This document shows positions 41,175 to 41,630 of a stretch of 64,000 nucleotides of DNA, piece by piece. The notes under the pieces were generated by a model that saw only the letters and a program-made list of their open reading frames with translations, did not search any database and was not told where the DNA came from. The translations under genes were made by a program, and so were the position numbers. The number at the start of each line of letters is the position of its first letter. Within the stretch, counting starts at the first letter, position 1. The stretch is from a phage: sequence record PZ445440.1; one strand, given 5' to 3'.

Positions 41175-41630
41175 TTATTTCAGATCTTCGGCCCAATCTA
41201 GTTTTAAGGGTTCTTTGTATTCACGGTCGAGAATAACCGGAATAGCTACATCACCACTGAATGATAGTTGGCCAACGTTATATGATAACGTTATATGTGG
41301 AGTGTAGTCGTCGAAATCATGAGTAGCACCTAAAGCTCGTGCATACTGATGACGACATCTAAGATATTCAGAATCAAGAACTAAAACCAGTACAGCGCCG
41401 TCATCGGTTTTCCATACCTCAAGGTGTCCTGATTTGGCAACAGAATAACTACCACTAGATGTAGTATATGGTATGTTTACACGCGAATAACAAATTGTTG
41501 AATGAAGCTTTTCACGTGGTACTGGATTAGGAATTCTTAATTTGCGCTGGAGGTCTTCCAGCGCATCAAGTGTTAATTCCGAAAATTTAGCTGCGACGTA
41601 GAGGCCTTGTGAAAAGTCCTCAAATTTCAT
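41175..41630 (-). CDS. 57B: gp57B (Acb1 anti-CBASS cyclic-nucleotide phosphodiesterase family)
   Basis: 151 aa; T4 gene order ipI-57B-57A-1; T4 57B is known as Acb1. Confidence 0.85.

Follow-up and report, generated by a model that had tools for sequence, protein, structure and literature searches.

The open reading frame at positions 41175–41630 of the window (the whole 64-kb stretch of DNA analysed here) raises the question of whether it encodes an ortholog of T4 gp57B, the anti-CBASS protein Acb1, whether the chemistry of the T4 enzyme can be expected of it, and whether its presence has any bearing on the nucleotidyltransferase-like (NTase-like) genes located elsewhere in the window. The origin of the DNA could be established by direct comparison of four stretches, which together span the whole 64 kb: the window corresponds to positions 105510–169031 of the MZ501056.1 record followed by positions 1–478, with 0 mismatches. 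The 2-kb stretch around the gene shows 100% identity with the same record, the genome of Escherichia phage ChristianSchoenbein, which is Bas46 of the BASEL collection, an RB69-like phage (Straboviridae, Tevenvirinae, Mosigvirus phapec2). Record coordinates are converted to window coordinates by subtracting 105509. Window positions 63523–64000 are the first 478 bases of MZ501056.1, containing the start of the small terminase gene; thus, the window crosses the arbitrary origin of a circularly permuted record.

The gene, hereafter acb1 (41175..41630, minus strand), starts with an ATG at 41630, which is the first start codon past the in-frame stop, and ends at 41175 including the stop codon; the ORF listing gives a product of 151 aa. 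It coincides with the CDS bas46_0250 of MZ501056.1, labelled "hypothetical protein" in GenBank. The plus-strand ORFs overlapping acb1 are 30–43 aa in length and have no support. The acb1 ORF is a real gene, far beyond chance.

In the Pfam search, the protein matched the family PF23474 (Anti-CBASS protein Acb1) over the entire profile (positions 1–144 of 144; E = 6.5e-59; 198.2 bits, with a curated cut-off of 27 bits), and this was the sole Pfam family reported for it at E ≤ 0.01. A sequence search of the PDB revealed Acb1 of the FBB1 phage (7T26/7T27; E = 9.2e-59), with 64% identity over 140 residues. A BLASTP comparison with T4 gp57B (NP_049750.1) indicated 130 identical residues out of 151 (86%), 140 of 151 positives and 0 gaps (E = 3e-103), residue n of the window protein being residue n+1 of the T4 protein. 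Given these levels of identity to a crystal structure and to a characterised enzyme, the identification is settled. The first-pass annotation had assigned the frame to 57B by synteny and size, and had suggested an alignment with T4 57B as a check; its coordinates and size proved exact, the assignment is supported by all three matches, and the identity in that alignment is high. A single-sequence AlphaFold2 model of the protein was too poor to use (pLDDT 38, pTM 0.28), so the fold assignment rests on homology to 7T26, the identity to which implies a compact 2H phosphoesterase fold.

At the nucleotide level, acb1 is 98.9% identical to RB69 57B, and its sequence is at least 95% identical across about 150 RB69-like phage records. 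Homologs were detected by tblastn in 1471 of 50,697 phage records. The ORF is an intact, ordinary Mosigvirus ortholog of T4 Acb1, a gene of an already known kind that is known in this phage group.

The surroundings of the gene lead to the same identification. Along the minus strand, gene 4 comes first and the gene of a GIY-YIG homing endonuclease second, followed by 2, 3, 1, 57A, 57B/acb1, ipI, four small ORFs and two tRNAs; T4 has the same order, minus the homing endonuclease. The order ipI-57B-57A-1, on which the first-pass annotation relied, could thus be confirmed and extended to ipI-57B-57A-1-3-2, with all genes on the minus strand, as in T4. The 3' neighbour anchoring the synteny is ipI (40810..41097, minus strand; PF11634 IPI_T4, E = 1.3e-50), encoding internal protein I, a nuclease inhibitor. 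Immediately 5' of acb1 lies the tail-fibre chaperone gene 57A (41630..41860, minus strand; PF17594, E = 2.4e-24), preceded by gene 1, encoding dNMP kinase (41865–42599, minus strand; PF21448, E = 1.5e-97). The TAA of 57A shares one base with the ATG of acb1 (TAATG), which suggests co-transcription and translational coupling of the two genes. In T4, the annotated start (MMEF...) gives a 4-nt ATGA overlap with 57A, whereas the window protein begins with MKFE... and is one residue shorter at the N terminus. Adjacency of 57A and 57B was found in nine of the ten phage loci compared (Bas46, T4 and seven of eight others), and of these eight more distant Straboviridae loci, belonging to several genera, all but that of VmeM-32 have the block 3-1-57A-57B. 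The genes located 3' of 57B are variable among the Straboviridae loci compared.

The active site of the T4 enzyme is well described. T4 Acb1 adopts the 2H phosphoesterase fold, and its HxT/HxT tetrad consists of H44, T46, H113 and T115 (Hobbs et al. 2022, PMC9117128); Y12, W74, F107 and, in the lid, W147 stack on the bases, while adenine N6 is read by E141 (PMC9117128). The H44A/H113A mutant is inactive (PMC9117128; PMC12657230), and in the FBB1 Acb1 structure the C-terminal lid closes over the ligand (PMC9117128). In the window protein, the first catalytic motif is H43-S44-T45 (CAT TCA ACA; 41496..41504, minus strand), equivalent to T4 H44/T46, and the second is H112-I113-T114 (CAT ATA ACG; 41289..41297, minus strand), equivalent to T4 H113/T115. 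Both catalytic histidines, whose inspection had also been suggested, are therefore in place in HxT motifs. The C-terminal lid, residues 144–151 (LDWAEDLK; 41178..41201, minus strand), corresponds to T4 residues 145–152 (LDWADDLK), with W146 equivalent to T4 W147 and one conservative difference, E148 versus D. Y11, W73, F106, W146 and E140 are all identical to their T4 equivalents, and every published ligand-contacting residue is kept. The two proteins thus have in common the catalytic tetrad, the stacking residues, the E141 equivalent and the position of the gene between 57A and ipI.

These positions were followed in an alignment of 11 family members: Bas46, T4, FBB1 and eight other Straboviridae homologs from phages of Yersinia, Cronobacter, Acinetobacter, Escherichia (Krischvirus), Aeromonas, Vibrio and Klebsiella, with 27–86% identity to the window protein. 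Both HxT histidines, both threonines and Y11 are invariant (11 of 11), and E140 is kept in ten of the 11. All 21 differences between the window protein and T4 gp57B fall in family-variable columns, each containing 3–9 different residues. Acb1 of the Erwinia phage FBB1, the template for the 2H fold, the tetrad and the lid (7T26, apo; 7T27, with 3'3'-cGAMP), aligns with one single-residue indel; the residues corresponding to W73 and F106, which T4 and Bas46 share, are F and Y in FBB1, and its host belongs to a different genus.

With high confidence, we read the gene as a Mosigvirus ortholog of T4 Acb1 with the anti-CBASS 2H phosphodiesterase chemistry of the T4 and FBB1 enzymes. By analogy with these, the protein is very probably an active, metal-independent 2H phosphodiesterase linearising 3'3'-cGAMP, cUA, cAAA and related signals. 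In T4, the ortholog came to light through activity-guided fractionation, as the activity degrading cGAMP (PMC9117128), and T4 lacking acb1 loses cleavage and turns CBASS-sensitive (PMC9117128).

A different function is suggested by the database labels. The window protein matches PHROG 755 (E = 1.9e-65), the label of which, "RNA ligase", has been copied into many GenBank records. If taken literally, this would make the protein an RNA-repair 2H enzyme of the LigT-like type, acting mainly on broken RNAs or tRNAs, with cleavage of cyclic oligonucleotides as a secondary activity. The HxT/HxT tetrad is indeed a hallmark of the whole 2H superfamily, LigT included, whose enzymes also react without metal ions, through a 2',3'-cyclic phosphate; Acb1 itself hydrolyses such a phosphate in the second step of its reaction (PMC9117128), and acb1 lies close to the phage tRNA cluster. 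However, the label, handed down from LigT-like 2H enzymes, names a family and not a tested function, and the Pfam LigT and 2'-5' RNA ligase families gave no score at E ≤ 0.01, Acb1 alone being reported. Moreover, the ligand-specific residues E140 and lid W146 are kept, and for the T4 ortholog, experiments have established cyclic oligonucleotides as substrates, through the fractionated activity and the deletion phenotype described above (PMC9117128). A primary role in RNA repair is therefore extremely improbable.

For the Acb1 reading, the course of events would be as follows. During infection, a host CBASS cyclase (CD-NTase) would produce cyclic di- or trinucleotide signals, which the window protein would capture in a U-shaped pocket, with Y11, W73, F106 and the lid residue W146 stacking on the bases and E140 reading adenine N6. 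Closure of the C-terminal lid would strain and distort the ring; with acid–base catalysis by the H43/T45/H112/T114 tetrad, the adenosine 2'-OH would attack the adjacent 3'-5' phosphodiester bond. The resulting 2',3'-cyclic phosphate intermediate would be hydrolysed to a linear 3'-phosphate product, with no need for metal ions. The passage through a 2',3'-cyclic phosphate and the metal independence come from the work on T4 and FBB1 Acb1 (PMC9117128). The CBASS effector (Cap4, Cap5, CapV or others) would then never be activated, and the phage would escape abortive infection. As a side effect, such activity might trigger the decoy-based Panoptes defence: T4 Acb1 degrades the Panoptes decoy 2'3'-c-di-AMP and thereby triggers this system (PMC12657230).

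Both the chemistry and the in vivo anti-CBASS role proposed for the window protein are extrapolated from the T4 and FBB1 experiments, which also point to a probable substrate range of 3'3'-cGAMP, cUA, cAAA and 2'3'-c-di-AMP, but not cGG. Close relatives among the 2H phosphodiesterases have been reported to differ in both substrates and products although their active sites are conserved (Doherty et al. 2025 preprint). Given this diversity, the exact substrate spectrum cannot be read from the sequence.

The same diversity is relevant to the possibility that this homolog has lost its activity or narrowed its specificity, for example, sparing 2'3'-c-di-AMP to avoid Panoptes. Natural loss of function does exist, as the Acb1 homolog of Bas43 has a nonsense mutation (PMC12657230), related 2H phosphodiesterases are reported to act on different sets of substrates even where the active site is conserved (Doherty et al. 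2025 preprint), and the window protein carries 21 substitutions relative to T4 Acb1. A protein sparing this decoy is known in 2H PDE-9, 165-aa entries of which (9Q2G/9Q2Y, titled "Anti-CBASS protein Acb1") were a marginal match in the PDB search (E = 1.3e-3). This enzyme belongs to the same 2H phosphodiesterase group, has both catalytic histidines and degrades 3'3'-cGAMP (Doherty et al. 2025 preprint); however, its lid is N-terminal, and it spares 2'3'-c-di-AMP and avoids Panoptes (Doherty et al. 2025 preprint), whereas the window protein has the C-terminal lid of the T4 type. The frame of acb1 is full-length, its catalytic and published ligand-contacting residues are those of T4, and the substitutions are in variable columns. 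In addition, the three T4-like phages reported as naturally resistant to Panoptes are Bas43, Bas35 and G2540, not Bas46 (PMC12657230).

The rates of substitution also argue against a lost or narrowed allele. Relative to T4, acb1 has dN = 0.126 and dS of about 2.2, a saturated and hence approximate value, which gives a dN/dS ratio of about 0.06 (Nei–Gojobori). Judged by this ratio, the gene is under strong purifying selection. Together with the at least 95% nucleotide identity across about 150 RB69-like phages, it makes a lost or narrowed allele very unlikely.

With T4, acb1 shares 75% nucleotide identity and 86% protein identity; the latter exceeds that of gp57A (59%), gp1 (64%), gp3 (64%) and gp2 (77%). 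A recent transfer of acb1 from a T4-like phage was considered and rejected, since the synonymous sites are saturated, unlike those of ipI (dS 0.86). It is also conceivable that Mosigvirus Acb1 is functionally distinct from T4 Acb1, with shifted substrates or products or a second, RNA-directed role. If true, this could explain the difference between Acb1 (86%) and its essential neighbours (59–64%). Nothing points to such a shift, with every known functional residue unchanged, and we consider it quite improbable.

Acb1 is accompanied in the window by a second anti-CBASS gene. An 88-aa ortholog of T4 Vs.4/Acb2 is encoded at 25209–25475 on the minus strand (PF24729 Acb2_Tad1_hairpin, E = 6.5e-18; PDB 7UQ2, Vs.4, E = 7e-30); it is bas46_0211, annotated as "hypothetical protein". 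The Acb2/Vs.4 sponge serves the same purpose as Acb1 but sequesters the CBASS signal instead of cleaving it, and the two are unrelated in fold and sequence. They are co-resident in T4, in the MM02 phage and in this window. By count along the 7UQ2 alignment, assuming a one-residue offset between chain and T4 numbering, the equivalent of T4 T68 in Acb2 is Q here; the T68M substitution has been reported to weaken binding in Bas35.

Thus, the BASEL phage Bas46 carries both known T-even anti-CBASS tools, one degrading and one sequestering the signal. Their presence predicts resistance to many CBASS systems signalling with cGAMP or cAAA and sensitivity to decoy-based Panoptes. Panoptes restricts MM02, which serves as the reference of the "MM02-like" phages Bas46–47 and encodes both Acb1 and Acb2, by a factor of 10^3–10^4 (PMC12657230). 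The Acb1/Acb2 content is useful to know where Bas46 serves to test defence systems; it opens no new question. For the databases, the label of bas46_0250 should be corrected from "hypothetical protein" to Acb1, the orthologs of which are often mislabelled "RNA ligase".

The first-pass annotation also considered the presence of Acb1 relevant to how the NTase-like genes of the window are read; this was not supported, and no link was found. The clearest of these genes (18957–19946, minus strand) encodes a 329-aa nucleotidyltransferase of the pol-beta type with an N-terminal GS…DxD motif. It matches PF10127 RlaP, the "RNA repair pathway DNA polymerase beta family" (E = 4.6e-13), and phrog_388, labelled "nucleotidyltransferase" (E = 1e-125); a PDB sequence search with this protein gave nothing meaningful (best E = 0.26). 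Copies of the gene occur in 1521 phage records, those of T2 and other T-even-like phages showing about 77% identity. Next to the gene at 18957–19946 lies one for a 326-aa P-loop/HTH-like protein (17861–18841) with weak AAA matches. Possibly, the other "NTase-like" gene meant was the one at 31843–32799 (minus strand); its product has 318 aa and a GS…DWD motif at the N terminus, and it matched only DUF7277, DUF7275 and phrog_2141.

None of the four proteins, Acb1, Acb2 and the products of 18957–19946 and 31843–32799, matched a PADLOC model of known defence systems at E ≤ 0.01. Counter-defence and housekeeping genes of phages are expected to draw such a blank; the result argues against the NTase-like genes being CD-NTases. 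An assignment to cyclases of the CD-NTase, cGAS or DncV-like kind was rejected on these grounds together with the PF10127/phrog_388 and DUF matches. The NTase-like genes are conserved accessory genes of T4-type phages. Acb1 acts on the products of host CD-NTases and is uninformative about these genes. The corrections made here are limited to the database annotation and to this supposed link; the gene itself is nothing new.

Several signals that may govern transcription of acb1 can be noted. The T4 late-promoter consensus TATAAATA occurs at 42215..42222 on the minus strand, inside gene 1 and about 355 nt upstream of 57A. With 5 occurrences in the window against 8.7 expected, the motif shows no enrichment. 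Its distance to the end of gene 1 is 350 nt here and 356 nt in T4, and only this shared position makes it suggestive as a candidate late promoter for 57A-acb1. Late transcription of the pair would fit the later expression of Acb1 compared with Acb2 (PMC12657230).

The 77-nt spacer between acb1 and ipI contains a promoter-like sequence TTTACA-N17-TACTAT, preceded by TG (41160..41132, minus strand), and an overlapping 12-bp hairpin (41152..41126, minus strand; dG −16.6 kcal/mol, z = −4.0). The T4 counterpart of the hairpin (dG −17.4, z = −5.2) has a different stem sequence in the same promoter–hairpin arrangement, from which it follows that the stem is kept by compensatory changes. The promoter-like sequence fits the consensus TTTACW-N17-TAYWAT of PeSLs of the T4/PST type (PMC4122927), which have been described as cassettes of a promoter and a terminator-like stem-loop (PMC2839356). 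The element resembles a cassette of the PeSL type and is likely an early transcription start for ipI, an attenuation point for read-through from acb1, or both. In many T-even phages, a blastn search with the spacer region matched two or three places per genome, presumably the shared 5' ends of ip genes. In the region 40500–43400, a generic sigma-70 scan was at background (10 sites versus 9.2 expected), and there was scarcely any enrichment of terminator-like sites (4 versus 2.0 expected).

Some features of the neighbouring genes are also worth recording. The GIY-YIG-type homing endonuclease gene (44159–44809, minus strand) is located between genes 2 and 4, where T4 has no gene. Both the ORF and the GenBank CDS of gp3, the tail completion protein (42654–43244, minus strand), have a GTG start and 196 aa versus 176 aa in T4; perhaps the start was placed too far 5' in the annotation, or the protein is extended. 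The tRNA locus (39146–39302, minus strand) contains only two tRNAs, Arg-TCT and a tRNA with a CAT anticodon annotated as Ile/ATA; at this locus, T4 has eight tRNAs, segB and small RNAs C and D. An Rfam search at the gathering threshold found the two tRNAs and nothing else. Finally, ipI shows 88% protein and 83% nucleotide identity to T4 ipI, with a dS of 0.86; the dS values of its neighbouring genes relative to T4 are 1.5–3.6, except for the 76-codon 57A (0.87). Possibly, Mosigvirus and Tequatrovirus lineages have exchanged ipI at a later date than the genes around it.
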